A DNA stretch of 64,000 nt. It comes from Blasia pusilla (Eukaryota). The notes under the pieces were generated by a model. That model saw only the letters and a list, made by a program, of their open reading frames with translations, searched no databases and was not told where the DNA came from. The translations under genes and the position numbers were made by a program. Where the stretch lies: assembly GCA_050084515.1 (NCBI GenBank), contig CM114271.1:35960001-36024000 (forward strand), written 5' to 3'. Shown piece after piece: positions 14,801 to 53,031 of the stretch. Within the stretch, counting starts at the first letter, position 1; the number at the start of each line of letters is the position of its first letter.

Positions 14801-14814
14801 TCGGTTGGACATGT

Positions 14815-20296: not shown

Positions 20297-20853
20297 TCGA
20301 GGTACGGAAACTTAGTCGGACAATCCCAGCGTAAACAAGAATATGTTACTGCCTTACACCAGCAGCATTCCCGAGTGGGCATCTGCTATCTCTGGCGAGC
20401 TGACTTAATTCAGCACAGCGATGTATGGCGGGTCTTCTTCCCTGTCCAGACCGACCGTGAGTGCCGATGAACCTAGAAAACACCCCGCAGTTCTAGACAC
20501 GAAAGAAGCTCTTGCTTTGGGGCGGTTCCAAACTTCCCGAATATGGAGCAGCAGGGTGGCCATCCATGAACGACGCTGCGGGTACGCGGTCAGCGGCTAC
20601 AGGACCAGGCTAACGGCAGCAGTGCCCCACAATTATCCACCCAACGAGGTCCGTAGGTATTCCCGGTTCGTTGATCGTCCACGTCCAACTGGGAAGTCGG
20701 AGGCGAGGTCTTGTCTGTCCGTGTACTTTGTGGGATAGTGAAAGAGGAGAGAGCAGTGTATAGCAGTAGCAGATGTGTCTTATCCTCTCTCGCGACTTCG
20801 CCACTCTCGTCGAGGATTAAACGCTTATCCCAAGTGTGTTGGCACAAGCGGCC

Positions 20854-32910: not shown

Positions 32911-35900
32911 CTCTTGAACTTGCCCAGGTAATTCTACCCCTTCATGGTAGTTTCTCAATGATATCATTACCTTTTGTAAATCTTGTAACATTTGAAAGTA
33001 TTTGTCTTCTTTAGGGTCTAACCCTTCTTACAAAGAGTATTCTACGTATGGATACTCTTTGTAGGAAGGGCTTTTGCACCTCCACCCAGCGGATGGGAAA
33101 AATGTGGTTCAATCCTAGCCAGAAGTAAAACCAAATTAAATCCCTCTCTATATTAGAGTCAAATTAAAAATTGAGACGGAAAGTGAGGAAAGAACATAGG
33201 AAAACAAGACACAAATAAAATAAAATAAAAACCAAAGGAGAAAAAATGTTTTCAGAAATTGAAAAAAGGAGATACTCCAAACCATATGCAGAAAAATTAT
33301 TCAAATCTAAATTCTTAGGAAGGAAACCGCTGGTCATGTATTAAAACTGGGAAAAAAGAAACTTGCCGGGGAAACCTGAATAGCATGCAAAATACTGTCG
33401 ACCCGGAGGCCGGAAGTGCAGTGCACGAAAAAATTGGGCAAAATGTGCACAGGAAGAAGTGCATTTATAATCGCTTCCATAAAGATAAAGGCTCGCTGGC
33501 ACTTCATTGTCCCCGTTTAATTCGATGGAAAACCCCCCTGATGAGGAATCATGGAGGATGATGCCACCAAACGAATGCACATGATGCAACTAATGTCTGT
33601 TTTAACTGCACACTCAGTGCAGAGCACACACTAAAAGATGAGCCCCCGACCGCCACCTTCCTCGTGAAGTGACGTGAACGATATGATCCACCAACTGCCG
33701 GCTTGTAATCGGCTACCTGTCCACAGTTCAAAGACACGACGTTGACCAATAAGAGCGTGCTGCTACACTTCGAACATGGGATTTTGATTACTTGCGTGCT
33801 AAGGTATCAAGAGTTGAAGGATGTCTGGCCTAGTACATTTCAATTCTCCAACAAAGGAAAAGAACACCCGATGTTCACAATACGTGGCAGGTATTCTTGA
33901 GTTGCACGTGGAATACCTAAGGTTCTGAAATATAGCATCCACCAATTCCAGGATCATAAAAGGAACAGCCATTGAACCCCACTATCCAAATTTCTACGTT
34001 GAACCCATTCTCGAACGTTTCTTAACTTATCATGACATGCACCATCAGGAGGCTTTTCAACATAAGCTGGCAATTTACCTTTCAACATCCCAATACCCGG
34101 CGTCCACCCCATTAGTCTTAGAGTGGAAAGCTTTAGAATGCGCAAGTACTACTTTCTTCAGGACATTTTGATTACCTTTGGGTGTCGAGTTCAAAGAGAG
34201 GGAGTAGGGGCCGGCTATTGGGAATTCAGCGGTCTGGATCTCTAAACTCGTAAAAAAATAACACGGCTAATTAATACTAATACGGTGGACACTATGGACA
34301 CTAACAGGGTGGAGTTCACATCCTTTCGTTAAAAAAATTCATGTCCGATTGTTTAAAAATTCATATCAGAGCTTGCAGGCTCTGCACTCGACTATTGTCG
34401 TAAACTAATGGGTTCTCATGGGCCGTAATTACTTGCGGTTGGGCTGAGTGGACTCGATCTTCTGAGGCACTAGAACCGACCATTCAGTGATCAAAAGACA
34501 GCATGAAACTCAGCTCCCAACAGCAGCTGCGGTTTTGAACATAAGCAATTAAGGACACATGCAACAGCGCAACCCAGATTGGGCGAGTAAGCGCTGCAGC
34601 AACCTCGACAATAGGATCCCCACTTCTGGTGGCATACGTTTGTGAAACTCGTGTAAGACGACAACAGTGACCATTTCAAATCTCCAATGAATGAGGAGAA
34701 CCATCGCAGCAGAAATATGTGTTCTTGCCGAAAGTAGTGTGAGGAGGAAAATTTCGCTAAACTCACCAGTGAACTAAAGAAGCGGTCTGTACGGATAATT
34801 ACAGAAATGACGGAAAGCAACTTGAGCCAACGGTGTGCTTTCATTCGGGAAAGCTTGAATTTCGTGTAATCGGAAGATTATGAAGCTAATCACCTCAAAT
34901 GTGTGTATCCCAAGAATTTCAACGTTTCCAGCAAAGCACAGAAAACCCAATTACGAGGCTACATCTCCGAGTCTCACTGATTATGAAAATGCTTTCAACA
35001 TCCCGTTGTGGTTCGTAAGCACAACCATGTTGTGCTATCTTTTAATATGGACAGGGACAGCGCAAAGACATAATCCTAAGAATTAATTAGATTGAGGAGC
35101 ACAGATCAATCTCGTATTTACAAAGATGAGGGGCAAGTGAATCGTCTCAAAGAGACGTCGTGTGGCAAGTGAAGTAGTCAAGCGACTCCTTCGTCCCCAA
35201 TCTCTCTTCTTTCGGGTCTATCCTCGCAAATCCTTGACAGTCACTACTTATTGAGTTCCATATCTTCTAGCTTCTAAAAAGCTTCGTGGTCCATTTTCCT
35301 ATTTCTCAGTAGCACGGGGTGGTCTTCCCGAAAGAAGAGGTAGGAAGCAGAAACAGAACAGCCTCGTCTTGAACCGGAGCTCCACAAGGCCTGACAGTGC
35401 ACCGTGACACGCCCCATTAATAGAAGTTCTGTGGTCTTCCCCACTCCGTAAGAATGTCGGAACACCTTTCACCCCACCCGTTGCATGTTGCCCAGCACCT
35501 ATTCAGCTTTTGGAGATCGACGATCGCAAAAGCAAGGAATTTGTGATATCATCTCTGACCACTACCACTACTCGTGTCGTGAAAAGTAGGAAAAGTAAAT
35601 TTGGGGGAAACCTAGATTAGCCAGCGTGAACTTCTCAGTTCGTTGCGTCAGAGTAATCAGATCTGATGTTGGTCCCGAGACTTCACTAATGTATGTCAGC
35701 AGTAGCTAAGCTTGTGATCCACCCTTTTAGCAAGACAGACGTAATCCCTGCCCGAAACGCCTTTCACTGTGTGCCAGTTAAAAGGCGTTACAAATCATTG
35801 GAGCCATGGACAAACTTCGAGCAGTTCATTTGAGATCAAATTCAGTGTATCCTTTCTGAAGATTTTTTCTCATAGTGCTCTGCCTGCATAATAGATTTTC

Positions 35901-36515
35901 CCGGAGCCAAAGAAAAAATCATGTTTTGAAGAATCATTGAGAGTTGACATTTCCTACCCTGTACTACTTGCATCTGCATGTAAAAGATAGATATTGAAAT
36001 CGCTCCTCCGCCAGAAAATGCTCAAGTCATCGAGTTGCACCGGATGCCTTCACTCCCTCCTACGAGTTCTTCTTTGCGAACCTTACCTCGTCATTTATCT
36101 ACAGCTAAACTCTGAAACTGTGAATATCATGCAAATGGATGCATGATATGATTCTTCACGTTCTGTATTAGCTCTACAATCTCCTCCTAAGGGTACAAGA
36201 TACATGCGTTCGGCTTGTAAAATTTTGAACTCCAGCGGTTCTAGATCTAATCCTCTATCCAAAAACTGCTCTTAACTCGCTCCACATCCAAAGACTGGAA
36301 AATTAATCGATCTAAAGCTACTTGTTACAAGAACTGCTCCCCTCTCATCATGAACCGATGGTTGGGATTTCTAAGAGAACTATACAATTCATTCATCCTG
36401 ATGGCCTTGGACACTACTGCTGCAGTTCAGCGTCAAATCGAAGGGATTGAAGGCCCACTTCATGTGGCCTCTCTAGATGTCCTCGTCGATCGCAAATCGT
36501 TGCTAGGAGCCTCAG

Positions 36516-37703
36516 CTACAATTCCTTACTGTCGAATGGTTCTGCAGCGTCGGACCACACTTTCCGCCAGTAACCCAAAGGTTTGCTGAAGAGTTTATCT
36601 GCAGTGCTGAAATTTATTTCTTCCATCTTATCCACAGCAAGAGGGTATAGATCCAATTGACTCGATGCTATCTTAATACCGAAAGTAGGGGCGAAAGGAA
36701 AGTCGGAGCCGAAGGTGATTTGATTGTTTGGGATGAATGCGACAGTGCTAGGCAACGCTGAAGGGCTCGAAGCCAGGGCCGTGTCCACGTAAAAGCTCTT
36801 GAGCTGCTCCATCGTGATCTCGAGATTCCTCCTCGACAGGAAGGTCAAAGCACCTGCCATACGATACGCAGCGAAGGGCATGAATCCTCCAGAATGAGAC
36901 AGAATGAACTTAATGTTGGGATAGCGCCCGATGACATCTTTGAGCACCAGATTGGCTGCTGCGCGGGTGGTGTCCAGAAGGAAGTCCATCACGAAATCAG
37001 GAACTCCAGTGTCTTCAACATGCTCCGGTTTTGGTGGTACTGGTATGCTATTGGGATGAACAAAGACCACAGCGTCACGCGCATTCAGCACCTCCATCAA
37101 TGGATCAAATTTCTTACTGCCCAGATACTCTCCCTCGGAGTTGGCGAGAAGCACCACACCGGCAGCTTTCAGGGTGTCCAGAGCATAGATCGCTTCCGCG
37201 ATGGAACCCTCCACGTCTGGGAGCGTAAGCGTGGCCCAGAACTGGAAACGCCCTGGATGAGTCAAGGCCAACATGTGGCCATACTCGTTCAGCTTGCGGG
37301 CGAGCTTCCGGCCTGCGTCCAAGGTTTCACCCTCCAAACGAGCACCGGGTGCGGAGATGGCGACAATAGCTGTTTCAATGTGCAAATCATCCATGAGATT
37401 CAGGTGCTCTGAAACATTCCATTTCGGGATAGGTCTCCCCCCCGAGCTCAAGCCCTTTTGCTTCAAAATGTCGTAGTAGAACGGAGGAATGAAGTGTGCA
37501 TGAGTGTCGATCCTCCTGTCTGGAACAAAGATCCCTCTCTGCGCCTGTTCAACAACATTAATGGCTGAAGGAGATGCAGGTGAAAGCACAAAGTGTCTGA
37601 TCAATGCGAGAAGCACCAAGGCTCGCGTGACATAACGCCAGGTCGCAATTCTCTTCGTATCCTTACTTGGTTTTGAAATCTGCTGAGAACTTCTGGAGTC
37701 CAT
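36516..37703 (-). CDS. Amidohydrolase-2 family metal-dependent decarboxylase (6-methylsalicylate decarboxylase / ACMSD-like), 395 aa, single exon
   Basis: First ATG at 37703 (the ORF-track start is GTG). Motifs RIDTHAH (HxH), VFVHP, DFLLDTTRAA, RYPNIKFILSHSGG, FYVDTA and FGSDFPF (catalytic Asp) are intact. ~55-aa N-terminal extension with a hydrophobic stretch; C-terminal tail ends DSKEL. Confidence 0.93.
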   Translation of the reverse strand: MDSRSSQQISKPSKDTKRIATWRYVTRALVLLALIRHFVLSPASPSAINVVEQAQRGIFVPDRRIDTHAHFIPPFYYDILKQKGLSSGGRPIPKWNVSEHLNLMDDLHIETAIVAISAPGARLEGETLDAGRKLARKLNEYGHMLALTHPGRFQFWATLTLPDVEGSIAEAIYALDTLKAAGVVLLANSEGEYLGSKKFDPLMEVLNARDAVVFVHPNSIPVPPKPEHVEDTGVPDFVMDFLLDTTRAAANLVLKDVIGRYPNIKFILSHSGGFMPFAAYRMAGALTFLSRRNLEITMEQLKSFYVDTALASSPSALPSTVAFIPNNQITFGSDFPFAPTFGIKIASSQLDLYPLAVDKMEEINFSTADKLFSKPLGYWRKVWSDAAEPFDSKEL

Positions 37704-38532
37704 TTGGAAACCTACACTCTTGTGAAGCTCACCACCGACAGCGTCCACGAAATCCGCTTCTTAAGTACTTAAGAGATCTACAGACCGGTACCGATGAAGA
37801 ATACGACTGACCTCTACAATAGCGCTCACCGGCTACAGATTCGCTTCCTCTCCTTGTCCAGATGACGCTCGATCGAGGGATATAAGTCCTTCCCAATGCT
37901 TGATCGTTTAAATGTAAAACGCTCAAGCACCTTCCAAGCGTGTGAATCAAAGAGTCACGTGGAGACTCCGGGTTTAGTCAACTTGAGGAATCAGTGAAGA
38001 TTGCACCGAAGAGAGACCTCAGCAGCAAGGACGGCGCGGGAGTGCTGTGACAGTTGGTGAGGTGACGCGGAGCTTAGCTGGTAAGCTCAACACCCTCCGC
38101 CTAAACAACGCGTTCACCTAGACTCATCGCTCACCACCAAAGCTATCGGTGGAGTCTAGATAAATGTTCGAGTAAGTTCTGAAATCCGATTCTAACACAG
38201 ATCAGATGACTTCTGCTCTGCTGAAGGTCAGGATGACTCGATCTGTTGGGTCCGCCAAGTCGTAGACACTCATCACTTGCGGTTGATTTACGCTAGGACA
38301 GGATATCTGTCGTAGGACCTGCAATCGCCAGTGAATCTTCCGAGAAACGCTCACATCGTCGGCCTTCACAAACACGAGCTTGGGTAGTCTACCCAAAGAC
38401 TCTCCACCTCGTGGTCGTTGACGAGGGCCCTGGCCCAGTGAATGGGGCCCAGTCTGGCATGGCTACGCAATTTCATTATTTATGCTATACGGCACAGAGC
38501 ATCTTTTCATTCTCAGCCTGTCCCCGTGTGGG

Positions 38533-38729
38533 TCCCCTGGTCTAGAGTCTGGACCATGCCGGCCAGCCCGCGGGCTGCCCGGCATGGTCCAGAGTAAAAC
38601 TTTCTCCGTTCCTGGCGGGCTGCGACGTTGCTCGTGTGATTGAGGGTGCCCATTTGCTCAACCCTTGCACATTCACGTGCTGTTTCGAGGAAGGGCCAGG
38701 GAGGCACCAGGTGTCTAGACTCTAGGGGA
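38533..38729. mobile_element. MITE-like element with imperfect TIRs and an internal 46-bp palindrome
   Basis: Left TCCCCT[GGTCT]AGAGTCTGGA vs reverse complement of right end TCCCCTAGAGTCTAGA; palindrome at 38548-38593; no TSD identified. Confidence 0.45.
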
Positions 38730-40591
38730 TGACTTTAGGAGACCGTTGACGAAATCACAGGTTTCCAATCGAATGGTTGCTCCCGACGTTTTTCCCGGAG
38801 CCGACCGGTGAAATGGGCGGCCATGCAAACGGCTACCGGTTTACAGTTACGACGTTTCGTTAAGATCGTCTAAACTAAACTGGTGTGCGGTCACTTGGAA
38901 AGAAGATACTAACACCAGTGGAGGGAGTTAAGAAAAAATATTGGGAGTAAAGAAAAATATTAGCACTCCATGGAGAGTAGGAGAAAAAAATGAAGAGGAA
39001 CGGAGAGAATGAAGGGATAAAGTATTACTAACAAGAGTAGAGAAAAAAAAGTAGGAGGGAGTGGAGAGAGTAGACAACTACTAATAGAGAGTGGGTTGAG
39101 TCCACATGTCTTCATTAAATTGGCTCACATCCTACACTTGAGAAGTTAAAGGGAATAACTTGCATTCTACAACTTTAGCATGGGGCCATCATATTATATG
39201 GTAGGAGGAGAAAGAGAACCTCTTAATATGGCCTTATGGTAGGATCCATAATAATTAAGATACTTATTAATTAATTTTTAATTAATATGGATTCCTCCCT
39301 TTAAAAGGTAAAAGTGAGCTAGTGGAATATCGTCACATAAGATGGGCCTAAAGACATATCACAATGTTCCAATTTAACATGCTTCCCTCGTTTGATGACA
39401 CGGATTTTATCATTTTGACATTTTCATCTCTTAAGTTCATCAACCCACCACACGTTTCTAACCATACTCCATTGCAATCTCGAGTCTAAGAATGGGCCAT
39501 AGTATGATAGTAGGACCACACTTTTTGTGGATGTATGATAACCTCAATGCAATATGGGTAAGGGTTAAGTGTGTAAAGACTTAATTTCTCACTGGTTGTG
39601 ACAAACACGCCATATTCTGTTACAAACTCAAGGCTAAAAAGGGCCGTACACTCCCATAGTTTGACGCTCCACACTTTTTGTGGATATATGATTACCTTTA
39701 TCCAACATGGGTTTTAAGTGCGTTGTAGACTTAGCCCCTCTTAATATCTTATACACACTTATTACACTAGTGAGAGTGCTTGTGCATAAGTACGTACCTT
39801 CTATGTTTTTTTACTTTACAACACCATTACATAAGTCCATGTAAATATTATTATCACATCTCCTCATGACTTTGATGTCTCCAAACTCTACTCTATGTAT
39901 CCTCTAACCATGGACGGTAATGGGGCTCCAATCTTGATAGAAATTTATATGGATGCTAGAGGAAGCCCAATCTTAGAGAAAAAAATGTCCATGCATACAT
40001 TGAATTTGCTCCTATCTTAATAAGCAGGGAATTAATATTTTCAAATGGATCTTTCTGTTATAAAAAAAAGTTTCTCTTGTTTGGGAGTAGACATACTAAG
40101 AATGGTAACCCTTCCCTCCTCCTATTATAATATAGAAGACCTATTGCAAGTACATTTTATGAAACAATGGAGGACGAACAAGAAAAATGGAACCATTGGG
40201 AGGCGATTAGGTAGCACTTTTTTCAAAGGGGGATGAAGAAGCCTAGTTTGCACTTCTATATACAATAGATTATAGTTAATAGGTTAATGAGGGATTTTGA
40301 AAATTTAATAATTTACAATTCTCTTCCTCAAAATGGTCTACGGACTCAATGGAGGCTTATCTCCGGCCTTATGCCCATAATGTACTTACAAGTTAGAAGC
40401 TCCAATGCAATCTCATTCTTACCTTAAATGAATTTTGTCATCCTTCGGGGGGCGGGGGTAATTTAATTGCATAACGTTCAATTGTCTAAGTTCAAGGGAG
40501 TAACGAGAAAAAAAGTCAAGAAATTTTTGCATTTGCATAATTCTGTAGAGTTACCATCATATGATATATATTAATAAAATAATTTTTGTCC

Positions 40592-40778: not shown

Positions 40779-41096
40779 TGTGGAAAACTGCTAAACAAAC
40801 ATAATTGATGGAAAACGGCTTTCACACACACACACACACACCACCATGGAGAACAATATTTGCAATGAGAGAATGAGTGGAGGCTGATCCTCTTCTCAAT
40901 TATATAGGGTATGTACAAGAAACCTTAACCCTATCCTTAACTATAGTCTCGAGTTAGCCTAATTATGATTAACTAACCCTAGTTAAGATAACCGTGCTTA
41001 ACTGACTAACCAAGATTAAGCTTCCCTACTTCGTGTGAGTGCCAAATGTAGCAGTTTAGGTGTCTCATGAGCTTGATTGTAACTCAATCTTCAATA
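40779..41096 (-). repeat. 3' LTR of Copia A
   Basis: Direct repeat of 45684-45997 with about 28 substitutions and a (CA)n length difference by eye; adjacent to the PPT. Confidence 0.95.
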
Positions 41097-41099
41097 TTC

Positions 41100-44000
41100 C
41101 CCCTCAAGCTTATATCGATATCTCTAACGCCTAAATCCTTTCTAAACATCTCAAACTTATCTCTAGATAATGCCTTTGTAAAGATATCAACAATTTGGTA
41201 ATCCGTACCTATATACACAAGATCAATTTCTTCTGCAAGCACTTTCTCTCTGATAAAATGATAATGCACCTCAACATGCTTTGTACGAGCATGAAACACA
41301 GGGTTATTAGCAAGCTTGATGCTACTAATATTTTCTGCATATATTACACTAGGTCCTAAGTTACTAACACCAATCTCAACAAGTAATCGATAAAGCCACA
41401 CCGCTTCACATGCTGCATTGGTTGCTCCTCTGTACTCAGCCTCTGTTGAAGATAAAGCAAATGTGGGTTGCTTCTTTGAAGCCCAACTTATAGATGCGCT
41501 TCCCAAAGTAAATGAATAACCAGATGTGGAGTGTTGATCAGACATGCTTCTTGCCCAATTAGCATTTGTGAATCCTTGTAATTGAAAACTCGGAGAAGGT
41601 TCAAATTGAAGCCCAAATTGAATAGAGAATTTCACATACCGCATAATCCTCCTCACAGCAACAAGGTGAGGTTTTCGAGGTGCTTGCATAAACTAGCTCA
41701 CTAGGCCAACAACATAGCTCAAATCTCGTCTGGTTATACTTAGATAGATCAAACTTCCAACCATGCGCCTATACATATTAGAAACTGCAAGCAGCTCTCC
41801 TTCATCGACTCTTTGCTTTACACTCTGGTCTAACGGTATAGAGATTGGCTTACAAGCCGTCATACCATATTTTGAAAGCATATGAAGAGCATATTGTCGT
41901 TGTAGTAACCACATACTCTCTCCAACCTTGATTAACTCAATACCAAGGAAGTATTTGAGTTCTCCGAAGTCCTTCATATCAAATTCTCCTTGTAAATTAA
42001 GCTTGACTTGTTCTACCATTTCTTCAGTACTCCCAGTAATCAAGAGATCACCAACATACAACACAATGAGAACTGTGTGATCTTATCCTCTCAAGATATA
42101 TAACGAGGAGTCAGAATCACATATCTTAAAATCCAACTCTTGTAGGACGTATGTAATCTTGCTAAAAGAAGCTCTTGGAGCTTGTTTGAGCATGTATAGA
42201 GCTTTCTTCAACCTGTATACGGGAAATGGAAACTTGGGATGCTCGTATCCAGATGGTTAAGTCATATATACCTCCTCGTATAGATCTCCATTGAAGAAGG
42301 CATTCTTGACGTCCATGTGATGTAATCTCCACTTCTTACTTACTGCAACTGTAACCATTGTTCTCGTAGTCACCATCTTTGCAACACAGCTAAATTTTTC
42401 CTCATAATCGATATCATATTGTTGTGCATAGCCCTTAGCCACTAATCTCACTTTGTATCTGTTAATTGTACCATCTTGATTGCGCTTGATTTTGTAAATC
42501 CATTTGCAACCAATAGCTTCCTTACCGGAAGGTATATCAAGCAGCTCCCATGTTTGTTGATGTCTTAATAGAGCAAGCTCTTCCTCCATAGCTTCAATCC
42601 ATTTGACTTTACTTGCAGCTTCTTCAAAAAAACTCGGCTCCTGCTGTTGAAGGGTAGTCATCCTATATGCATGATATGTCGCAAGGAAACCTTCATTTCT
42701 GAATCTATGAACTTGATATGTAACTCTACTTGATCTACAAAGTTGTTGTTTAGAGGTAGATGCCTGTGACACCTCACTCGAGCTCTCACTAGTGTCAATA
42801 GACTGAATATGTACTCTTCCCGTCCATGGACTCACAAATTTAATTGATAAATCTAGGACCTCTCCTAATCTTGCACTAGTACTTGGGGAAGTTGAAGACA
42901 ATGTCTGTTGGTTTATAGTCATATTCTCCCCCTCAACAGACAAGTTTAAAGGTGGAATAGGCTCAGATGGAGCATACCATGACTTTAGCTGATCAAAGAC
43001 AACATCCCGACTAATAATAAGCTGCCTAGAAGATGGAATATAGCACTGATACCCCTTAGTTCCATCAGCATAGCCAATGAAGATACATCTTTCAGACTTG
43101 GGGTCTAATTTCTGACGTCTCTCTTAGAAGGAACATGAGCATAACAGATACAACCAAATACTTTCAAGAAAGAAAAATCAGGTTTACTTCATGTGAAGAC
43201 TTCAAATGGAGTTTTATCATGAACTCCTGCTGTTGGAGTTCGGTTGATTAAGAAGACTGCACATGCTATTGCCTCTACCCAATACACCTTAGGCATGTTC
43301 TTCTCATTCAACATGGCTCTTGCCGCTTCAGTAATATGTCAATTTTTCCTCTCAACCACTCCATTTTGTTGTGGAGTGTAACGGCAAGTCACTTGATGTT
43401 GGATGCCATTCTGACGTAAATAGTCATCAAACTCTATTGAAAGATACTCTCCTCCTCCATCACAACGCAATTTTAGAATGTGTTGTCTAGTCTGTTTCTT
43501 TACTAGAACTCTAAATGTTTGGAACACTGAGAATACCTCTGACTTGGCTTTCAAAAAGTATACCCATATATACCTAGAGAAGTCATAAGTATATGAAACA
43601 AAGTACTGGAAACCACTAAGGCTATGTTGTGATGCTGTCCACACATCACTGTGGATCAACTCCAATATCTTGGATGCTCTTCTACCTTGCTTTGGAAAAG
43701 GAAATCTAGCTTTTTTTCCAAATTGGCAAGCAGGACACACCTCTAACGTAGGAAGACTTGCTAATTTAGGGAGTCCCATTACTATATTAGATGATGAAAG
43801 ACTCTGTAATCTTTGAAGATTCATAGGTCCAATTCTTTTATGCCACACATTTAGATTTGTAACTTGTTGGCCGGTTTGACCATACATTGATGTTTGAATC
43901 TCTGGCATAGAAACATCTAATTTGAACATTCTGCTAGATCTAGTTCCTTTGGCTATCGTAGTCTGATCATTCATTATTTCAGTGAAACAACCATCTGCGT

Positions 44001-45270
44001 TAAACTTCATTTGATAACCCTGTTCTACTATCTGTCCTACAGAGATCAGATTTCTTGCAATGGTAGGAACATAGAGAACATTTCCAAGAGCACAAAGACC
44101 ATCTGATGCTATTGGAACTTTACCGGTATGCGTTATATGATGCAGAGTGTCATCTTATGTGAGCACAATTGTAGGATCTTTCACCGGCTCCAAACTACTG
44201 AACCATTTTGCTTGTGAGGTCATGTGATTTTATGCACCGGAGTTAATGTACCAATCTGTTGTCTAGTCTTTCTTGACCATTGCTCCCATATGATGAGTCA
44301 TGACCAAGACATGCTCCGTTTGTGAATGTTGCTGTTTTTGGTACTGCTCTTGATGTTGTTGCTCCACATAGTTTTGTTGTTGTAAGGCTCCTGTTCTCAT
44401 ATCTGCCTTCTTCTTGAAGCAAAACTTTGCATAGTCACCCTTTATCTCACAGTAATTGCAAGATCCAGGGACCCTCTGCTGTTGACCTCGACCCCAACGG
44501 TTTCCACCATCACCGCCATGTGATTGTGTCTGATACTAGTTCGTAGTTGATTGAGTGACGTTATATTGAGTGCCTCTTCCTCCATATGCTTGATATCCAC
44601 CACGACCACGGAAGTTTTTGCCATGACCCCTGCCTCTGTTTGATCCATAACTTGCAAATAGCGCACTCTCTTGCAGACTAGACGAGCTACCGCTGCCTAT
44701 TAGATGCATCTCTTCATTGATCAACAGAGGAACTAAATTTGAAAGGTTGGATACTTCTCTCTCACAGAGATATAGGTCTCAAAGGACTTGTAATCCTTTG
44801 GAAGGCCTTGAAGAGTGAATAAGATCAGATCATCATCTTCTACTGTTACTCCAATGCTATTCAACTGATCAACAATATGTCTGATACTCAAAATATAATC
44901 ATTGATCCTCTGCGATCCTTTCCTCACTTCGTTCAATTTCTGTTTCAATTGAAGCTTTCTGGCCTTTATAGATGTTTGGAACAGCTTTTCCAATGCATCC
45001 CAGGCCTCCTTCGGAATATCAACATCTTGGATTTGATCTATCATTGGCGAACTGATTGTTATTGAAATGTAGTGGATTACTTGCCTTGCGCGTTTGTTCC
45101 AAGCGCGAACATTCAAGTCTGTTGAGTCATCTTCTGGCTTGGCCTCATCACATGTGACAAGCTCCCATAGTTCTTGATCCATGAGAAATTGTTTCATGCG
45201 AAACTTCAAGACATTGTAATTATGCTTGTTTAGCTTCTCGTCTATGATTGCTGCTCATAAATACTCCATG
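41100..45270 (-). pseudogene. Copia A gag-pol polyprotein, disrupted
   Basis: Fragments for gag (LQGLPKDY), integrase (LIHSDVW, TPQQNGVVERKN), RT (GCKWIYKIK, YKVRLVAKGY, LYVGDLLI) and RNase H (SSTEAEY, NPVFHARTKH, DIFTKAL), separated by stops and frameshifts. Confidence 0.92.
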
Positions 45271-45683
45271 ATAAACGATTTCACTCACAAAAAATGCAAT
45301 TTAAGGTTTTCTATTGCTCCAATGGAAGCGTAGACCACTCTTTCACAAAAATTGATGTGAAATTTTCCAAAATTGATCAATTGTATGAAGGAACTAGTCG
45401 AAATTGGCCTATAGAGAGCAAACTACACAAATTTTCTTCACTAATTGCACTTTCCTACACTAAAATTGATGACGCAGGAGCTCAGAGTGTCAGAATCGAC
45501 CGAGAAAGCCCTAAAAAATGCCTCTAAAGTTTTATCACCATCAAAGCTCCACTTGAAATCTGCACCCATTGAGCTCTGAATAAAGTTTCCTTCTCCCAAA
45601 TTGAAAATTTTCCTTCTCTTGCCTCTCTTCTCTCTTCAAACACCAAGAATTTCAAGTGATGTTCTCCTCCCGCTGTGATACAA

Positions 45684-45997
45684 TGTGGAAAACTACTAAA
45701 CTAGTATAACTCGTGGAAAACGACTTTTACACACACACACATCACCATGGAGAACGAAATTTGCAATGAGAGAATGAGTGGAGGCTGGTCCTCTTCTCAA
45801 TTATATAGGGTATGTACGAGAAACCCTAACCCTATCCTTAACCATAATCTCGAGTTAGCCTAACTGCGATTAACTAACCCTAGTTAAGATAACCTTGCTT
45901 AACTGACTAATCAAGATTAAGCTTCCCTACTTCGTGTGAGTGCCAAATGTAGCAGTTCACGTGTCTCATGAGCTTGACTGTAATGCAAACTTCAATA
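45684..45997 (-). repeat. 5' LTR of Copia A
   Basis: Adjacent to the PBS; followed on the + strand by the TSD AATCC. Confidence 0.95.
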
Positions 45998-46002
45998 AAT
46001 CC

Positions 46003-49000
46003 TAGTAACGCTACTCCATAAACCACCTAGGTCATATTACTATGACTCCTCCGAAGGCTAAGTCGAAACCATCAATCTAGGCTTCTCCTCATTCAAGGGG
46101 GTCGATCAAATTAATGGTGCCGAGAGAAGTGGATGTTGAGAATTCAACAACCCCCCCTTAATATCCACTCTTGGGTGGACTAGTGTCTTGGACCGATGCC
46201 AAGACCATTCAGATGTCGTTGAAGCTAATCTCCGCTCAAGGCTTTGGTGAAGACTTTTGCACGGTTATCCTCTATTGGACAATAGACTAACTTCAAAACC
46301 TCTCTCTCGATCAACTTATGAACAAAATGATAGTGGATCTCTATGAGCTTTGTACAAGCATGAAACACAGGATTATCCGCTATGGAAATGTAACTCTGAT
46401 TGTCATACCACATTACAATAGCACTTTCTCGTGCTTCTCCTATGTCCTCCAATATCCATCACAACCATACTACTTCACAACAAGCATAACAAGCCCCCTT
46501 ATACTCTGCCTTGGTAGAAGAAAGAGCCACCGTAAGTTGCTTCTTGCTGACCCACGACACCACACCTAATCCTACCAAGAAATAATCTCCCAAAACTGAT
46601 ATCCAAGAATCTGAGTCTCCTGCCCAATCCGAGTGACAAAAGGCTGTAATTTCCATCCCTATTCCATAGGTGATGATGTAATCGATAGTGCCTTTGATAT
46701 ACTTCAACACACGCATACCTGCCTTCCAATGATTCTCACGAGGCTTAGTTGAGAAGCTACTCAACACTCCCATAGTAAAGCTAATGTTTGGTCTTGTGTT
46801 GCACAAAAATATCAAATTGCCCACAAGCTTTCTGTACAACTTTTCATCTACCAATGGTGAAACATCCTTCATTGAGAGGGTCAAATCTACATCCATTGGC
46901 CAGACCACTTCCTTACACTCGGTCATCCAGAATGCCTTCAAGATTTCTCTAACATACTTTTGCTGCGAGAGAAAAATAAAAATGTGACTGTTGCAAAATC
47001 TCCAACCCTATAAAGTAGTGCAAAAGATCTAAATCTGACATTTCAAACTCATATTTCAACACTTCCATCATTTCCTTTATTTTCTTATTATGGTCTCTTG
47101 TGATGATCAGATCATCCACATACAGAACTATTAACATATACATCCCATCTTTGCAAAACACATACAAATTTGCTTCTAACGGACTCTTGATGAGACCCTT
47201 CTCTCGAAATAATGTATCTATTCGTTGATACCATACCCTTGGGGCTTGCTTCAATCCATACAATGCTTGACGAAGCAAACACACTTTCTCTTATGATCCG
47301 AGTGTCTCAAAACCTGGTGGTTGAGATACATACACCTCCTCCTTGAGACTCCCATTCAGAAATGCAGACTTCACATTGTATTGGCATACATGCCGATGTC
47401 TTGTTCTTGCCACCGCTAGAATAATTTGAATGGTTTTCATCTTGCAGTAGGAGCAAAAGTCCCATAGTAATCAAAACCTTTGATATGTGAACATCCTTGT
47501 GCAACCAACCTCGCTTTGAGTTTATCCAATATACCGTCCGACTTGTACTTGGTCTTGTACACCCACTTGGTGCGTATTATCTTCCTACTCTTTGATTTCT
47601 CAACCAAAGTCCACGTTTCATTTCTTTGAATAATGTCCATCTCCATTTGCATGGCCTTTCTCCATTGAGGATGAGCAAGGGCCTCATCCAAGCATGATGG
47701 CTCTTTCACCTTCAAGACCTCTGTCATCAAGGCCATGTTGACGAGATGTGCGGAAGCTCTATTTTGCTCTTCTAGTCTCTTGGATCTCCTTGGATGTGTA
47801 ACAACTTCATCACTTGTTGGTGGATCCTTACCATCCAAGAGCTGCTTTATCCACTTAGGGTTTGAAGACCATAGTGGAAGAGCAAGCAACTCTTTGTAAT
47901 CATCACCAAATTCTTCTTCTTGATGATCCGGTGTAAACATTAATGGTGTGCTGTGGTGGTTCGTCTTTTCGTTTGATGATAATATGGACGGACCACTGAT
48001 ATCCGCCACTTGACAAGGCTATTCCTAGAATACCACATAACGACTCACAAGCATCTTCTTTGCCTCAGGACACCATAGGCGATAAGCTTTAAACTCATCA
48101 CTTTATCCCATAAAGATGCACTTCCTCCTCTTGGAATCGAACTTGGTCTTGGATGCTACAAGAATATGTACAAAGCACTCGCTACCAAAATTCCTGAAGT
48201 GTTGGACTGATGTTTCCTTACTTGAGTATGCTTGATAAGGAGTCATGCCTTGCATTGACTTGGTAGCACTTCTATTTAGAATATAAATGGCAGTATAAAC
48301 GACTTCAACCCAAAATCCTTTTGTTAAACCTTTTGCTTTCATCATACATCTTGCCATATCCACCATTGTACGCTTTCGATGCTCAACAACACCATTTTTT
48401 TGTGGTGTATGTGCCGTGGTTAACTGTCGCTTGATTCCATGCTCCCCCAAATATTTGTTGAATTCTATTAATAAGAATTCTCCTCCTCGTTTCTCTACGA
48501 AGCTTCTCTACATTCTTTCCTGTCTCATTCTCAACCAGCTTGTGCTATACTTTAAATTTTATAAAAGCACTTGCCTTACCACGAAGGAAATACACCCACA
48601 TCTTCCTACTATAATCGTTGACAACTAAAAAGAAATACGACGAACTACCTAATGCCAATGTTCTCATTCTACCACATAGGTTAGCATATATAAACTCTAG
48701 AGGAGCCTTTGCTCTATTTCTGGACTCTTGTGGAAATGGTTTTCGGTATTGCTTGCCTATCATACAAGCTTCATATATATCCGATACTCCAAAAATTGTT
48801 GGTAAATCAGCAACCATGCATGATTTCTGCATCTGACTCAATAAGGGAAAGCTAGGTCATCAAAATCTTTCATGCCACAACTTACTGCTACCAAGATCTG
48901 TACCTACACTTGTCGTGAAAGCATATAACTTGTAGATGTTTCCGCACCGTATACCTTCACCCGTTACTTTCCTATTGACATCCTTAATGACTACTCCAGA

Positions 49001-50640
49001 TTTCTTGAAATGAACTTCTAAGTTGCGATCATATAATATTGCTACTGAAAGCAAATTCCGCTTCAACTCTGGTATGTACCGTACATCAGTTAACTTCTTT
49101 TCATCTCCTTTTTATGAGACGAAGGAAAATTTTCCTTTTCCTTCTACAAGGCACTTTGCATTATTCCCAACAATAATAACGATGGGCTCTTGCAAAGGCT
49201 GTAAGGAGCTATACTAATGCTTATGATTGGTCATATGCCTAGATGCTCCACTATTGAGCACCCATGCATCTTCACTCTTTGACTTAGTGGAATTTTTTTC
49301 CTGTGTACAAAACTCTTCGATTGCTATCTAAGCATCTATCTCATATTCTCCTAGTTCTACAGAATTTCCATACTCCTTCTTAGGTCTTAAATAACCCTTC
49401 TTCTCATCCTGACTCCTCTTTCTACAATCTTTGATAAGATGACCTAGCTTACCACAATAAAAATATTTGAAGGCATTCCTTGGAAATTTCTTCGTTACAT
49501 TTGAACTGTAATCTTGATTTCTACCTCTCTGTACTTTGGCAGTAAATACTACATCATTTCCCTCTCTTGCTTTGAAGCGCATTTCCACATCTACCAACAT
49601 TGTACTAAATTGTTCAAAAGTATGCGGCGTGGATCTTACTTGAGTATCCAATGCAATGATCAAACGGTCATACCTCGAAGGCAAAATCCTTATGCATCGA
49701 CCGCCAAATCTTCGCTAGACTTTGTAATTCCTATGGACGCCATCTGATTTTGAAGATTCTTGATCTTTGTCAAATATTGCCGTCCAACGGACCAAAATTT
49801 TGCGGGCCTTGAGCATGTGCCTGCCCGCCTTAGCGCGCACTTGCCCGCCCTATCGCGCACTTGCCCGCCCTAGCCCGTGCCCAATCAGCCCTGAGCCCGC
49901 GCCTGCCCGCACCTTCCCGCCTGGAGCTCGTGCCTGCCCGTCTTGAGCCCTCACCTTCCCGTCTTGAGCCCACACCTGCCCGCTCGGAGCCCGCCCTACG
50001 AGCCATGCAACAGGTGCGGGCTCCGTGAGCCCAGGTCTATATGGCGGGCCCGGGTGCGGTCTGGGCATGTCCGAGGATATGTCCGTTTCCGTGCAATCTT
50101 GACGCCAACAATACAACAAGATCGATATCACCAGATGAAGATGAACATGCAGAACTCAAAGTAGCTTGTGGATTCGAATCGACCCCTGTAGCCATCTCCC
50201 AGATCGCAAATGACTTGAGGACAGTTCTCATTTTGAACTTCCATGATGTATAGTGAGACCCATCTTACTTTCCTTCACCCAACAGAGGATGGGGAGCACA
50301 AACTGATGAAGAAGAAGCCATCTCGCAAGAATTTGTGCGAACATACTAGATCGCCAGATACAAAATACCAGAGAGTCTACAACTCTGATACCATGTGAGA
50401 AAACACAATGTGATGAAATCAGTGAAATGTTTCACAAATCTTGGAGTTACAAAGTGGCCTAGTCTGTCTATGCCCTCACAGAAGAGCTTAGATGGAACTT
50501 GAACATAGAGATAACTCGACGTACGAGAATGCGCTACCACAGCGGCTTCCGATTATTTTACTACTCGAGAAACTAGGGTTTTTTACCCATTTTTCTTTAT
50601 TTCTATTTATGCCGAGATGACATAGCATGTGCCACCTCAG
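46003..50640 (-). mobile_element. Ty1/Copia element B (different family); 3' LTR split by element A, 5' LTR truncated
   Basis: PPT at ~46151-46158 next to the LTR end ...TTCAACA (46149); the LTR continues at ~40700-40778 on the far side of element A. RH/RT/IN/PR/gag fragments (FYCGKLGHLIKDC, AWVLNSGASRHMT, LYVDDLII); PBS TGGTATCAGAG at 50383-50393; 5' LTR remnant 50394-~50640. Confidence 0.9.
49779..50101 (-). mobile_element. GC-rich non-autonomous hAT-like fragment inserted in the Copia B gag
   Basis: Abrupt GC-rich block of (T)GCCCG repeats interrupting gag; minus-strand start CAAGATTGCACGGAAACGGAC resembles the termini at 5204 and 30044. Confidence 0.6.
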
Positions 50641-53031
50641 CAATATGTCAATTCTTCCTCTTAGCGTCTCCATTTTGTTGTGGAGTGAAACGACAAGTTA
50701 GTTGACATTGGATGCCATTTTGACGTAAATAGTCATCAAACTTTATTGAAAGATACTCTTCTCCTCCATCACAATGTAATTTTAGAACGTGTTCTCTAGT
50801 CTGCTTTTCTAGTTCAACTTTTAATGTTTGGAACATTGAAAATACTTCTCACTTGGCTTTAAGAAAGTACACCCACATATACCTAGAGAAGTCATTAATA
50901 AATAAAATAAAGTACTAAAAATCACTAAGGCTATGTTGTGATGTTGTCCATACATCACTGTGAATCAACTCCAATATCTTGGATGCTTTTCTACCTTGCT
51001 TTGGAAATGGAAATCTAGTTTATTTTCCAAATTGGCAAGCAAGGCATACCTCTAACATAGTAGGACTCACTAATTTATGAAATCTTATTACTATATTAGA
51101 TGAGGAAAGACTCTGTAATCTTTGAAGATTTATATGCCCAATTCTCTTATGCCACACATTTAGATCTGTGACTTGTTGGCCACTTTGACCATATATTGTT
51201 GTTTGAATCTCTGGCATAGAAACATCTAATTTGAACATTCTTCCAGATCTAATTCCTTTGGCTATCATAGTGTGGTCATCCATTATTTCAATGAAAAAAC
51301 TATCTATGTTAAACTTCACTTGATAATCCTATTCTACTATCTGTTCTATAAAGATTAAGTTTCTTGCAATGGTAGAAAAATAGAGAAGATTTCCAAGAGC
51401 ACAAAGACCATATGATGCTATTAGAACTTCACCAGTATATGTGATATGATGTTGAGTATCATCTTCTATGAGCACTATTGCACGATCTTTCACCAACTTT
51501 ATACTACTGAACCATTTAGCTTGTGAGGTCATATGATTTGATGCACCAGAGTCGATGTATCAATATGATGTCGAGTCTTTCTTGACCATTTCTCCCATAT
51601 GATGAGTCGTGACCAAGAGGTGCTCAATTTATAAATGTTGTTGTTGTTCTTGATACTGCCCTTGGTGTTGTTGCTCCACATAATTTTGTTGCCGTAAGGT
51701 TCCCGTTCTCATATGTGCCTTCTTCTTGAAGCAAAACCTTTGAATAGTGACCCTTTATCCCAAAGTAATTGGAAGATCCAGAGACCCTCTGTTGTTGATC
51801 TCGATCCCAATGGTTTCTTCCATCACCAACTTGTGATTGTGTCTAGTAATGACTCAAAATTTATAGTAGATCAAGTGGCGTTATATTGAGTGCCTCTTCC
51901 TCCATGCTTGATACCCGCCATGACTACAGAAGCTTCTACCACGACCTCTGCCTCCGTTTGATCCATTTTTGCAAATTGCCCACTCTCTTGCATACTAGAA
52001 TAGTTATTACTACCTACTAGGTGCAGCTTCTCACTGATTTACATTGGGACTAACTCTTGAAAAGTTGGATACTTCTCTCTCAAAGAGATAGAAGTCTCAA
52101 AGGACTTGTAATCCTTTGGAAGGCCTTGAAGAGTGAACAAAGTCATGTCATCATCTTCTACTGTCATTCCAATGCTATTCAACTTATTAATAATATGTCT
52201 GACACTCAAAATATAGTCATTGATGCTCTGAGATCCTTTCCTCACTTCATTCAATTAATGTTTCAATTGAAGCTTTTTGGCCTTTGAAAATATCTAGAAA
52301 AACTTTTCCAATGCATCCTAGGACTCTTTCAGAGTATCAACATCTTGAATATGATCTATAATTGGAAAACTAATCGTTATTGAAATATAGTGGACTACTT
52401 GCGTTGCGCGTTTGTTCCAAGGGCGAAAATTCAAGTCTGTTGAGTCATCTTCTAGCTTGGCCTCATCAATTGTAACAAGCTCCTATAGTTCTTGACCCAT
52501 GAGAAATTGTTTCATTCGAAATTCCAGACATTATAGTTTTTCTTGTCTAGCTCCTCGCCTGTGATTCCTGTTGAGGACTACTCCATGAAGAACAATTTTA
52601 CTCAAAAAAATGTAATGTCAAGCTCTTCATTGCTCCAAACTGAAATTTTACCTTCTCTTGCCTCTCTACTCTGCTCAAACATAAAAAAATTTAAGTGATG
52701 TTCTCCCATCACTTTAATACCATGTAGAAAAATGTTAAGGAAGCATAAGTGGTGGAAAACGACTCTCACACTCACACACCACCATGGAAAAAAAAATTTT
52801 GCAATAAGAGAATGAGTGGAGAGTGGTCCCCTTCTCAATTCTATACAAGAAATCCTAACATACCCTGATCCTAATCATAGTCTTGAGTTAGACTTAGTGT
52901 GATTAACTAATCCTAGTTAAGATAACCGTGCTTAATTGACTAACCAAGATTAAGTTTCCGTACTTTGTGTGAGTACCAAATTTTAGGAGTTAGGGTGTTG
53001 GATGAGCTTGATTGTGACTCAATCTTCAACA
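50640..53031 (-). mobile_element. Ty1/Copia element C: 5' half of a second, more decayed copy of family A
   Basis: LTR 52723-53031 (TG...CA) homologous to the A LTRs; degenerate PBS 52711-52722; gag, PR and integrase colinear with 43330-45680; ends inside integrase just after QQNGDAKRKN. Confidence 0.92.

Follow-up and report, generated by a model that had tools for sequence, protein, structure and literature searches.

The window analyzed here, a 64-kb stretch of Blasia pusilla DNA taken as a whole, carries on its minus strand an intact, intron-free gene for a protein of the Amidohydrolase_2 family. The features of this gene are, in window positions:

36516..37703, minus strand: complete coding sequence, 395 aa plus stop, intron-free (open reading frame from ATG to stop; RNA reads without splice joints).
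35883..37869, minus strand: approximate main transcript (stranded RNA-seq; 5′ ends at ~37836-37869, main 3′ end at ~35883).
37575..37631, minus strand: N-terminal hydrophobic segment, residues 25-43 (VTRALVLLALIRHFVLSPA), a predicted signal peptide or type II signal anchor (hydrophobicity; modeled helix).
36579..37517, minus strand: catalytic (beta/alpha)8-barrel domain, residues 63-375 (Pfam; pLDDT mostly >90; Foldseek match to 2f6k with a TM of 0.93 on the target).
37494..37508, minus strand: D66-T-H68-A-H70, HxH motif predicted to bind metal, where strand 1 ends (invariant in 52 sequences).
37056..37058, minus strand: H216 (VHPN), predicted third metal ligand (invariant in 52 sequences).
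36894..36896, minus strand: H270 (SHSGG), predicted catalytic histidine (invariant in 52 sequences).
36702..36704, minus strand: D334 (GSDFP) on strand 8, predicted to bind the metal and donate a proton (invariant in 52 sequences).
36519..36530, minus strand: C-terminal SKEL, a degenerate version of the ER-retrieval-like HDEL/HEEL ends (by comparison with the closest relatives).

Three stranded RNA-seq runs with the same species label covered the gene at a sense-strand depth of ~40-88 over 35.9-37.85 kb, against 0-7.5 on the opposite strand (for a minus-strand gene, the first mate was assigned to the plus strand), and no splice joints were reported in these runs between 35300 and 38900. The 3′ UTR is ~630 nt long, and the 166 nt upstream of the start codon, up to the mapped 5′ ends, contain no ATG. 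Same-strand coverage goes on below 35883 at a weaker level. The window and the RNA runs differ at a single coding position, 37062, where the change is synonymous (F214). An intact, intronless amidohydrolase-2 gene with all metal and catalytic motifs had been described in an earlier note on this DNA, and the open reading frame, the Pfam match, an alignment of 52 sequences and the RNA-seq agree on this description.

A tblastn search of the 395-aa protein against the 64-kb window returned no second copy. Pfam domains were matched in 16 of the 116 window ORFs of at least 80 aa, namely in the gene itself, in a TPM gene and in transposon domains, and in none of the 148 short ORFs examined out of the 241 with 55-79 aa. 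The plant sequence that flanks the gene contains the TPM/TLP18.3 gene, copia elements and a Helitron. Pfam on the ORFs of the window, a search that short exons could escape, found no PKS, reductase or P450. We consider it very likely that the gene is real and expressed and that its product is a secretory-pathway enzyme with a decarboxylase fold.

Pfam Amidohydro_2 (PF04909) matches residues 65-342 of the protein (E 1.1e-24, 88.1 bits against a cut-off of 26.4), and a search of NCBIfam matched no family. The protein was modeled with AF2 at a pLDDT of 89.6 and a pTM of 0.83. In the 52-sequence alignment D66, H68, H70, H216, R247, H270 and D334 are invariant, along with other residues; a check of the positions of these residues confirmed them, and the mononuclear metal-site pattern (HxH on strand 1, His on strand 5/6, Asp on strand 8 and the catalytic His) is kept in full. 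The roles given to HxH, H216, H270 and D334 are those we take them to have by analogy with ACMSD-family structures.

A sequence search of the PDB returned 2f6k as the best match (E 7e-34), followed by LigW, IDCase, gamma-resorcylate decarboxylase, ACMSD and 2,3-DHB decarboxylase. Foldseek gave an order that echoes this one, with 2f6k (E 6e-23) first and decarboxylases of the PF04909 family after it. The 2f6k protein ('Amidohydrolase II' LpR24, from structural genomics) resembles ours at a TM of 0.93 on the target and 28% identity, and the printed alignment has the HxH, HPN, H-(A/S)-G-(A/G)-F and GSD-(I/F)-P motifs in both; however, it is only ~307 aa long and has neither the N-terminal leader nor the C-terminal extension. 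Since 2f6k has no known substrate, no function can be transferred from it. The barrel and the position of the metal site are also shared with gamma-resorcylate decarboxylase (2dvt), LigW (4icm/4l6d), IDCase (4hk5), ACMSD (2wm1), 2,3-DHB decarboxylase (6m53) and the Trichosporon salicylate decarboxylase (6jqx/8h41). Foldseek aligns these characterized ACMSD-superfamily decarboxylases with E-values of 1e-15 to 1e-17 and a TM of 0.70-0.79 on the target, but they are only 17-22% identical to our protein (sequence E 8e-17 to 2.5e-5) and belong to a different subfamily, so substrate binding is not transferable residue by residue. As part of our best explanation, the product would be a divalent-metal-dependent non-oxidative decarboxylase in the ACMSD/PatG-like branch of Amidohydrolase_2.

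The earlier note had put the gene in the subfamily of the fungal decarboxylases PatG and YanB. What stood is that relatives carry the name: '6-methylsalicylate decarboxylase' is the automatic name of M. polymorpha relatives, of JGI bacterial ones and of one from Aspergillus, and the automatic names of relatives point to EC 4.1.1.52. The Aspergillus nanangensis protein P0255, with the same name in UniRef, is 37% identical over 306 aa (E 2e-64), and the nearest ESM Atlas cluster, from Ascomycota, is also so named. The subfamily assignment itself is one by automatic names, as the kinship was judged on automatically named relatives. PatG and YanB (EC 4.1.1.52) and the orsellinate decarboxylases have PF04909 in common with our protein, and the substrates of the fungal PatG/YanB class are 6-substituted salicylic acids, to which lunularic acid would belong on chemical grounds. 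A gene of the PatG/YanB type would be expected to cluster with the PKS that makes its substrate; no PKS domain was found among the window ORFs searched. Unlike the fungal PatG-type enzymes, our protein comes from a plant and bears secretory signals, and bacterial homologs, at 46-50% identity, are closer to it.

Liverwort names were carried by 22 of the 120 homologs listed; no other plants were named among them, and the rest were bacterial or unnamed. Across two lists of matches (120 + 120) no non-liverwort plant name was found. Among the matches listed, the nearest homologs are 58-71% identical, come from five liverwort species and lie on megabase contigs. In a tree whose root is not fixed, the 35 liverwort-type rows are all united in a single clade (99% support) apart from 38 bacterial rows and one yeast row, and this clade splits into at least six paralogous subclades. 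M. polymorpha has at least seven members. The window gene falls in clade VI, where it groups with subclade VIb at 80% SH-aLRT. In a more careful tree the branching inside clade VI is a trichotomy (AU p 0.40), and the gene may group either with the HDEL group or with the group of Mapoly0070s0012, the nearest M. polymorpha homolog (58% identity, clade VIa). No M. polymorpha protein was found in the HDEL-type group VIb, either in the matches listed or in the tree. The homologs, their single clade and the RNA coverage of the window gene place the family, expressed, in liverworts. That a microbial-type decarboxylase gene sits in a plant was a second point of the earlier note, which considered a liverwort as a possible host; Pfam, the PDB search, the homolog names, the tree and Foldseek bear out an ACMSD-superfamily decarboxylase gene in a plant that is a liverwort.

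With the liverwort rows monophyletic and bacteria as their nearest outside relatives, the sequences indicate that this is a horizontally acquired bacterial gene. The family most likely derives from one such gene, which then multiplied into at least six subclades, and our best explanation includes its presence in liverworts since before the Marchantiopsida-Jungermanniopsida split. The main texts of two HGT papers (PMC9667741 and PMC12890914) do not mention the decarboxylase family. With the family alignment, 79 bacterial loci were collected, and the neighborhood was examined in 32 of them. Meta-cleavage or aromatic hydroxylase genes were among the four nearest ORFs at nine of these 32 loci, or at ten if a weak tautomerase match is included; the neighbors comprise extradiol dioxygenase, DmpG/DmpF-type and flavin hydroxylase genes. 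This aromatic-catabolic context fits phenolic-acid decarboxylation.

Most bacterial homologs start at the HxH motif, without a hydrophobic leader; such a leader is found in 34 of the 35 liverwort proteins. In the window protein the hydrophobic segment was modeled as a helix over residues 16-40, and because the hydrophobic stretch 25-43 is preceded by a charged N-region of 24 residues, an uncleaved signal anchor is equally possible. In P0003-P0006, which are relatives, the N-regions are short and ASA- or SAS-type sites occur. A transit peptide was judged less likely, since the closest relatives combine classical short signal peptides with HDEL or HEEL ends. In subclade VIb, the window protein included, five of the six rows end in -EL (HDEL in P0003, HEEL in P0004 and P0006, HSEL in P0002, SKEL in the window protein), and the sixth ends in HEEL plus three residues. 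The classical C-terminal pattern for ER retrieval is [KRHQSA]-[DENQ]-E-L, which the HDEL and HEEL relatives match and from which SKEL (window) and HSEL (P0002) depart. The earlier note had also suggested that the gene might fit a membrane-bound activity in its localization. Given the HDEL-like C-termini of the closest relatives, 'membrane-bound' is better read as a signal peptide or anchor together with an ER-retrieval-like C-terminus, and so as ER or secretory lumen. A microsomal location is thus predicted from the two ends of the protein.

N-glycosylation sequons average 3.2 per protein in the liverwort family against 0.6 in bacteria, a contrast that may partly mirror amino-acid composition. 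Within the family, clades I-IV have 2-7 sequons and no -EL end, and clades V and VI have 0-2. [quoted passage not shown]

Liverworts are marked out chemically by lunularic acid, lunularin and the marchantin-type bisbibenzyls; for the loss of the carboxyl group an enzyme activity has been known since 1974, but no gene. The enzyme of 1974 is said to have been bound and to have been solubilized with detergent, behavior that a microsomal or lumenal protein would show, and its activity was reportedly measured in whole thalli. The organism was Conocephalum conicum (Pryce & Linton 1974, Phytochemistry 13:2497, as cited in PMC12095976). The citing paper, on Radula and from 2024, still cites only the 1974 enzyme work and invokes an unknown "orchestrated" decarboxylation (PMC12095976). 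No gene is assigned to lunularic acid decarboxylase in the literature searched. The Conocephalum activity, known without a sequence, is like our candidate in pointing to a liverwort enzyme and a 6-substituted salicylic acid; the tie between the two consists of chemistry, taxon and predicted compartment, and nothing further. For the conversion of lunularic acid to lunularin, whose enzyme has never been cloned, this family is a good though unproven candidate. For a substrate among the bibenzyl-type salicylic acids we would give the enzyme slightly less than an even chance, and that the window paralog itself is the lunularic acid decarboxylase seems rather doubtful.

Three PF04909 genes of Marchantia, Mp3g24770, Mp4g10160 and Mp4g05510, are among 136 MpERF13-dependent oil-body-cell genes, with log2FC values of +3.7/-7.3, +2.8/-3.8 and +3.6/-3.1, respectively (PMC7708844 Supplementary Data 1), in a regulon defined in one species and one experiment. 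The same list includes PAL, type III PKS, MpMYB02, P450s and a dirigent gene (PMC7708844). Two of the three paralogs were placed in our tree, Mp3g24770 (Mapoly0183s0009) in clade III and Mp4g10160 (Mapoly0011s0002) in clade IV; Mp4g05510 (Mapoly0087s0039) lies outside this placement. Both placed paralogs resemble the window protein in belonging to the liverwort clade and having N-terminal leaders, but they are only ~50% identical to it, have no -EL end and carry 5-7 sequons. Mapoly0070s0012 is absent from the 136-gene list. In the literature searched we found no functional characterization of the three genes, and the only family identifier in literature text was Mp7g01790, which appears without functional comment in a table of the MpKAN paper. 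No family member was found in one MarpolBase Expression supplementary file. At the level of the family, the oil-body co-regulation supports a link to bibenzyls.

We propose that a single bacterial phenolic-acid decarboxylase gene was captured and given a signal peptide in a liverwort ancestor. After entry into the plant the family would have gained the N-terminal signal peptide or anchor, and the subclade of the window gene would further have acquired its C-terminal H/KDEL-like end; with both, its place of action is expected to be the ER or secretory lumen and not the cytosol. By analogy with the enzyme class, H68, H70, H216 and D334 would hold a metal to which a salicylate-type substrate binds through its ortho-hydroxyl and carboxylate; C1 would be protonated with the help of D334 and H270, and CO2 would leave. 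Liverwort bibenzyl acids, lunularic acid or a derivative of it, would be the likeliest substrates. In this account the intact gene, its expression, the fold, the conserved residues, the phylogeny and the motifs at both ends are shown by the present data, and the reaction, the substrate and the localization are inferred. In its full form, the proposal has lumenal enzymes of the ER and the oil body carrying out the decarboxylations of bibenzyl, bisbibenzyl and bibenzyl-cannabinoid chemistry, with the window gene encoding the ER-resident enzyme of 1974, and we regard this whole as unlikely to be right in every part. As the synthesis of lunularic acid is presumably cytosolic, an enzyme in the lumen would depend on transport of its substrate. 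As to bibenzyls in general, the liverwort-only plant names among the matches listed parallel bibenzyl chemistry; against them stands the absence of a pathway gene cluster from the 64-kb window.

If the proposal is true, the family clearly exemplifies the recruitment of a bacterial gene into plant specialized metabolism, and if the window gene does encode the 1974 enzyme, horizontal transfer supplied a defining step of liverwort-specific chemistry. The predicted lumenal reaction, if true, would change the picture of pathway compartments and transporters, and the enzyme would be a useful part for making bibenzyls and bibenzyl cannabinoids in heterologous hosts. The list of candidates is short and testable, being one family that is liverwort-only among the plant matches listed, with at least seven M. 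polymorpha members, three of them in the oil-body program.

A different division of labor within the family is a possibility that we entertain tentatively. Decarboxylases for bibenzyl acids would still come from the family, but the one for lunularic acid or the marchantin pathway would be an oil-body paralog of clade III or IV, such as Mp3g24770, and the clade VI gene would act on another phenolic acid or have another role, for example detoxification or turnover in ordinary thallus cells. The positions of Mapoly0183s0009 in clade III and Mapoly0011s0002 in clade IV, and the absence of the clade VIa member Mapoly0070s0012 from the regulon, argue for this division and weigh against a bibenzyl substrate for the window gene. 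The higher sequon counts of clades I-IV, without an -EL end, would likewise fit secreted or oil-body-lumen proteins; the low counts are those of clades V and VI. In the other direction point the 1974 activity, reportedly from whole thalli, and the single species and experiment behind the regulon. Lunularic acid accumulates in Mpabcg1 and Mpmyb02 mutants, in which the oil-body program is disturbed, as if later steps needed that program (PMC13545645). The same paper reports lunularic acid as undetected in oil bodies, so that an enzyme outside the oil body could be the one that meets it.

The protein might instead decarboxylate simple hydroxybenzoic or other small aromatic acids, in an ancestral catabolic role unrelated to bibenzyls, which we think quite improbable; a family acting on such unrelated acids would be a case of ordinary ancient gene transfer. 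The extradiol dioxygenase, DmpG/DmpF-type and flavin hydroxylase genes that adjoin homologs at 9-10 of the 32 bacterial loci are consistent with this role, as are the lack of a known substrate for 2f6k, the closest solved structure, and the lack of neighboring pathway genes in the window. However, plant members are liverwort-only in the two match lists, the family has expanded in liverworts and acquired secretory targeting, and in oil-body cells three members share their regulation with phenylpropanoid, polyketide and P450 genes.

Another Amidohydrolase_2 activity, for example that of a hydratase like LigJ, a lactonase like LigI or a hydrolase, is very unlikely. PF04909 includes hydratases and lactonases, and LigJ and a meta-cleavage-compound hydrolase do occur among the PDB matches, but only as weak ones (E 1e-6 to 1e-3); the best characterized matches are all decarboxylases, with E-values at least ten orders of magnitude better, neither the catalytic His nor any part of the H-x-H/H/D metal set is missing, and EC 4.1.1.52 is where the relatives' automatic names lead. 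The lack of introns and the bacterial nature of the nearest non-plant relatives might suggest that bacterial DNA contaminates the assembly or that the gene is a recent insertion and dead, which we reject as next to impossible, given correct-strand transcription with UTRs in three RNA-seq runs, plant sequence on both flanks, a GC/GC3 of 0.51/0.57 beside 0.54/0.60 in the neighboring plant ORF, 58-71% identity to genes on megabase contigs of five liverwort species, and a eukaryote-type leader.

The gene is a single long open reading frame (36516..37703, minus strand, 395 aa) in the window ORF scan, and residues 65-342 of its product match PF04909 (Amidohydro_2) in Pfam at 88.1 bits, where the cut-off is 26.4 (E 1.1e-24). 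The residues D66, H68, H70, W95, H216, D240, D244, T245, R247, H270, R281 and D334 do not vary among 52 aligned liverwort and bacterial homologues. From the solved structures of the family we take H68, H70, H216 and D334, by analogy, to be the metal ligands and H270 to be the catalytic histidine. The description in the earlier note of an intact amidohydrolase-2 gene with metal and catalytic motifs therefore holds. A confident AlphaFold2 model built from the same alignment (pLDDT 89.6, pTM 0.83) has a barrel and an N-terminal helix at residues 16-40. The closest sequence in the PDB is 2f6k (E 7e-34), whose own function is not assigned, followed by 5-carboxyvanillate, isoorotate and gamma-resorcylate decarboxylases, ACMSD and 2,3-dihydroxybenzoate decarboxylase. 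Foldseek with the model also placed 2f6k first (TM 0.93 on the target), then the same decarboxylases together with Trichosporon salicylate decarboxylase.

Liverwort names are attached to 22 of the 120 best homologues listed: five from Marchantia paleacea, two from M. polymorpha, three from Riccia fluitans and six each from R. sorocarpa and Calypogeia fissa. The best of them are 58-71% identical to the window protein; the other named homologues are bacterial, at 45-52% identity, and none of the 120 is named from any other plant. These matches settle the host as a liverwort, which had earlier been assumed conditionally. Another search, started from three divergent members of the liverwort family, brought in further liverwort proteins and a single yeast protein (Candida metapsilosis), again with no non-liverwort plant among the matches listed. 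The wider family is large: an exhaustive profile-free search gives 6728 representatives at E <= 1e-3, of which 691 reach E <= 1e-30. In a quick 74-row IQ-TREE phylogeny, from which P0016, P0017, P0024, P0025, P0125, P0127, P0188, P0217, P0224 and P0226 were omitted as fragments or near-duplicates, all 35 liverwort-type rows (27 named, seven unnamed transcript-like and the window protein) form one clade with 99% support. This clade covers both Marchantiopsida and a leafy liverwort, so the family is older than their split. With the other named relatives being bacterial, the idea of a microbial-type gene in a plant is borne out; the tree is not rooted, and we infer both the bacterium-to-plant direction of transfer and the donor. 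GC and GC3 of the coding sequence (0.51 and 0.57) are similar to those of the adjoining plant ORF (0.54 and 0.60). The Candida protein (P0142, 310 aa, no leader) sits on a long branch among actinobacterial and other bacterial rows, which suggests a separate transfer of the same decarboxylase family into yeasts.

The liverwort clade divides into at least six groups in the 74-row tree, and the window protein belongs to clade VI with 98% support. Clade VIa includes M. paleacea 000246, M. polymorpha Mapoly0070s0012 and several Riccia genes, and VIb includes the homologues P0002 and P0004, M. paleacea 010424, and Riccia 012978 and 012774. Grouping of the window protein with VIb received just 80% support in the quick tree; a careful 24-row tree gave a trichotomy at this point, and the AU test did not reject the grouping (p 0.40). 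Sequence identity, at 65-71% to VIb vs. 58-62% to VIa, favours a position nearer VIb. M. polymorpha has at least seven family members, with none in VIb among the matches listed in the two homologue searches. In M. paleacea, Mapa_010424 and Mapa_010425 (P0003 and P0023) follow one another by locus tag on a 960,618-bp contig and set clade VIb beside clade IV; judged by locus names alone, the family is partly in tandem. The Riccia sorocarpa tags 003040-003093, which share a contig, suggest a local array there too, likewise by name alone.

In most bacterial homologues the protein starts with the HxH motif, which falls in the first 3-15 residues; a hydrophobic N-terminal leader is present in 34 of the 35 liverwort proteins, the exception being P0133, with an aberrant N-terminus. 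Leaders in clades I-V are short and resemble classical signal peptides, and those of clade VI are longer. The hydrophobic stretch of the window protein, residues 25-43, follows a charged N-region of 24 residues and could act either as a cleaved signal peptide or as a type II anchor. Counting the window protein with VIb, the six VIb-type C-termini read SKEL (window protein), HSEL, HDEL, HEEL, HEEL and HEEL plus three residues. HDEL and HEEL are ER-retrieval signals, and SKEL looks like a degenerate form of them. N-glycosylation sequons average 3.2 in the liverwort proteins vs. 0.6 in 32 bacterial ones (Mann-Whitney p 4e-9), a contrast to which amino-acid composition may contribute; they number 2-7 in clades I-IV and 0-2 in V-VI. 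Taken together, leaders, C-termini and sequons lead us to read the window protein as a predicted ER or secretory-lumen enzyme. Pryce and Linton are said to have described the lunularic acid decarboxylase activity, in 1974, as "bound", and a lumenal enzyme would co-sediment with membranes and come off with detergent. The main shift from the earlier note concerns the membrane-bound localisation: the leader at 25-43 may be a type II anchor, and the HDEL/HEEL ends of VIb point instead to the ER or secretory lumen. An enzyme type already known thus occurs in a new setting, in a family that was probably acquired by horizontal transfer, is limited to liverworts among the plants in the matches listed, has expanded there and is predicted to be redirected to the secretory pathway. 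Leaders of the twin-arginine type (RRxFL...) occur in many bacterial homologues (P0037, P0039, P0081, P0222, P0241 and others), so the family already has exported or periplasmic versions in bacteria.

For the bacterial relatives, 32 of 79 loci, hand-picked for taxonomic spread, were examined with the four nearest ORFs at each. Nine of the 32 have extradiol dioxygenase, DmpG/DmpF-type aldolase/dehydrogenase, flavin aromatic hydroxylase, FAA hydrolase or intradiol dioxygenase domains nearby, and a tenth has a weak tautomerase match. TetR, MarR and LysR regulators are frequent across these loci, and a PKS occurs at one. The pattern fits an ancestral function in decarboxylating hydroxy-aromatic acids before ring cleavage. 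The automatic name 6-methylsalicylate decarboxylase is attached to M. polymorpha proteins, to JGI bacterial homologues and to the nearest ESM Atlas cluster by language-model features, which is from Ascomycota. It is also the UniRef automatic name of an Aspergillus nanangensis protein with 37% identity to the window protein over 306 residues (E 2e-64). Through these automatic labels the window protein is putatively akin to PatG-type enzymes, the fungal 6-methylsalicylate decarboxylases.

Was the family also connected with bibenzyl chemistry? Literature searches, including name variants, found no molecular identity for lunularic acid decarboxylase in the papers covered. With about 19,000 genes in M. 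polymorpha, a list of 136 would be expected to hold, roughly, 0.05 members of a family of at least seven. PMC7708844 defines an oil-body regulon of 136 genes that are up in MpERF13 gain-of-function and down in the knockout, which has no oil bodies; three are PF04909 genes, far above chance for a family of this size. Their values (gain-of-function/knockout) in its Supplementary Data 1 are:

Mapoly0183s0009/Mp3g24770, +3.70/-7.27
Mapoly0087s0039/Mp4g05510, +3.64/-3.14
Mapoly0011s0002/Mp4g10160, +2.80/-3.81

By exact look-up, Mapoly0183s0009 is P0211 of clade III and Mapoly0011s0002 is P0122 of clade IV. The same list includes PAL, a chalcone/stilbene-synthase-family gene, MpMYB02, several P450s and a dirigent gene (PMC7708844). 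The paper also reports that signal-peptide cargo expressed in oil-body cells reaches the oil-body lumen, and the methods describe an SP-mRFP-HDEL construct. PMC12095976, alone among the papers covered in naming lunularic acid decarboxylase, cites Pryce & Linton 1974 and argues that decarboxylation in Radula must be enzymatic. The family is a strong candidate for the decarboxylation steps of the marchantin pathway, and for steps in oil bodies the evidence points first to clades III and IV. Mapoly0070s0012, of clade VIa, is absent from the 136-gene list (PMC7708844), which makes the oil-body evidence neutral to mildly negative for clade VI. According to PMC13545645, lunularic acid is not lowered in Mpabcg1 and is in fact raised, as earlier in Mpmyb02, and it had not been detected in oil bodies. 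The lunularic acid decarboxylase proposed in the earlier note is now plausible on more than chemistry, at the level of the family and not of the window gene. That the window paralogue is itself this enzyme we consider unlikely; that it acts on some bibenzyl-type acid comes close to an even chance, if slightly short of it.

The gene shows no sign of a biosynthetic cluster around it. Across the window, 16 of 116 stop-to-stop ORFs of at least 80 aa have Pfam matches: the window gene, the TPM/TLP18.3 gene, copia-type pieces at 41-51 kb and Helitron/PIF1 pieces at 55-58 kb. Shorter ORFs (55-79 aa) gave none in the 148 scanned of 241, covering 12-41 kb and beyond 59.5 kb; such scans could overlook genes built of short exons. 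The features are:

14787-15287, plus strand: open frame of 167 aa without a Pfam match, within the GC-rich block
20821-21717, plus strand: TLP18.3-type gene, a single 299-aa frame with a TPM-phosphatase domain (E 4e-18)
41087-51328, minus strand: a tandem-oriented pair of degraded copia-type LTR retrotransposon bodies, with Gag, integrase, SH3-like and RVT_2 pieces over several frames
55347-58235, minus strand: Helitron remnant, with Helitron_like_N and PIF1 helicase domains broken over several frames

The TLP18.3-type gene, which the earlier note mentions, lies where the window is richest in GC (12-24 kb, GC 0.42-0.51), and the 167-aa frame may be part of an unrecognised gene.

Three raw-read RNA-seq runs under the same species label were mapped onto 35300-38900. 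Depth is ~40-88 over 35.9-37.85 kb with the first mate on the plus strand and 0-7.5 in the opposite orientation, which for usual stranded libraries means minus-strand RNA. No splice joints were reported over 35300-38900 in the three runs, so the transcript is unspliced, in agreement with the intronless gene noticed at first reading. The ends of the molecules gather at 37836/37869 on the 5' side and at 35883 on the 3' side, giving a message of ~2 kb with a 3' UTR of ~630 nt, and the 166 nt 5' of the start codon contain no other ATG. Compared with the window, the RNA individuals carry changes at several UTR positions and a synonymous one at 37062 (F214). Base 36274, in the 3' UTR, is missing in all three runs and in contig X1, and fixed differences lie at 35919, 35994, 36132, 36264 and 36382; these reflect either strain polymorphism or a small assembly error. 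Minus-strand RNA also persists past the main 3' end, over 35300-35900, at a depth of 13-50 with its peak in run X19, either as read-through or alternative polyadenylation or as a separate transcript that lacks a recognisable ORF. One 886-nt contig of run X1, at a depth of 830, matches the window gene only at 37473-37514 (42 bases) and is unlike it beyond, and the gene's own contigs break at the same place, which suggests a transcribed host paralogue or a divergent allele sharing the stretch near the HxH motif.
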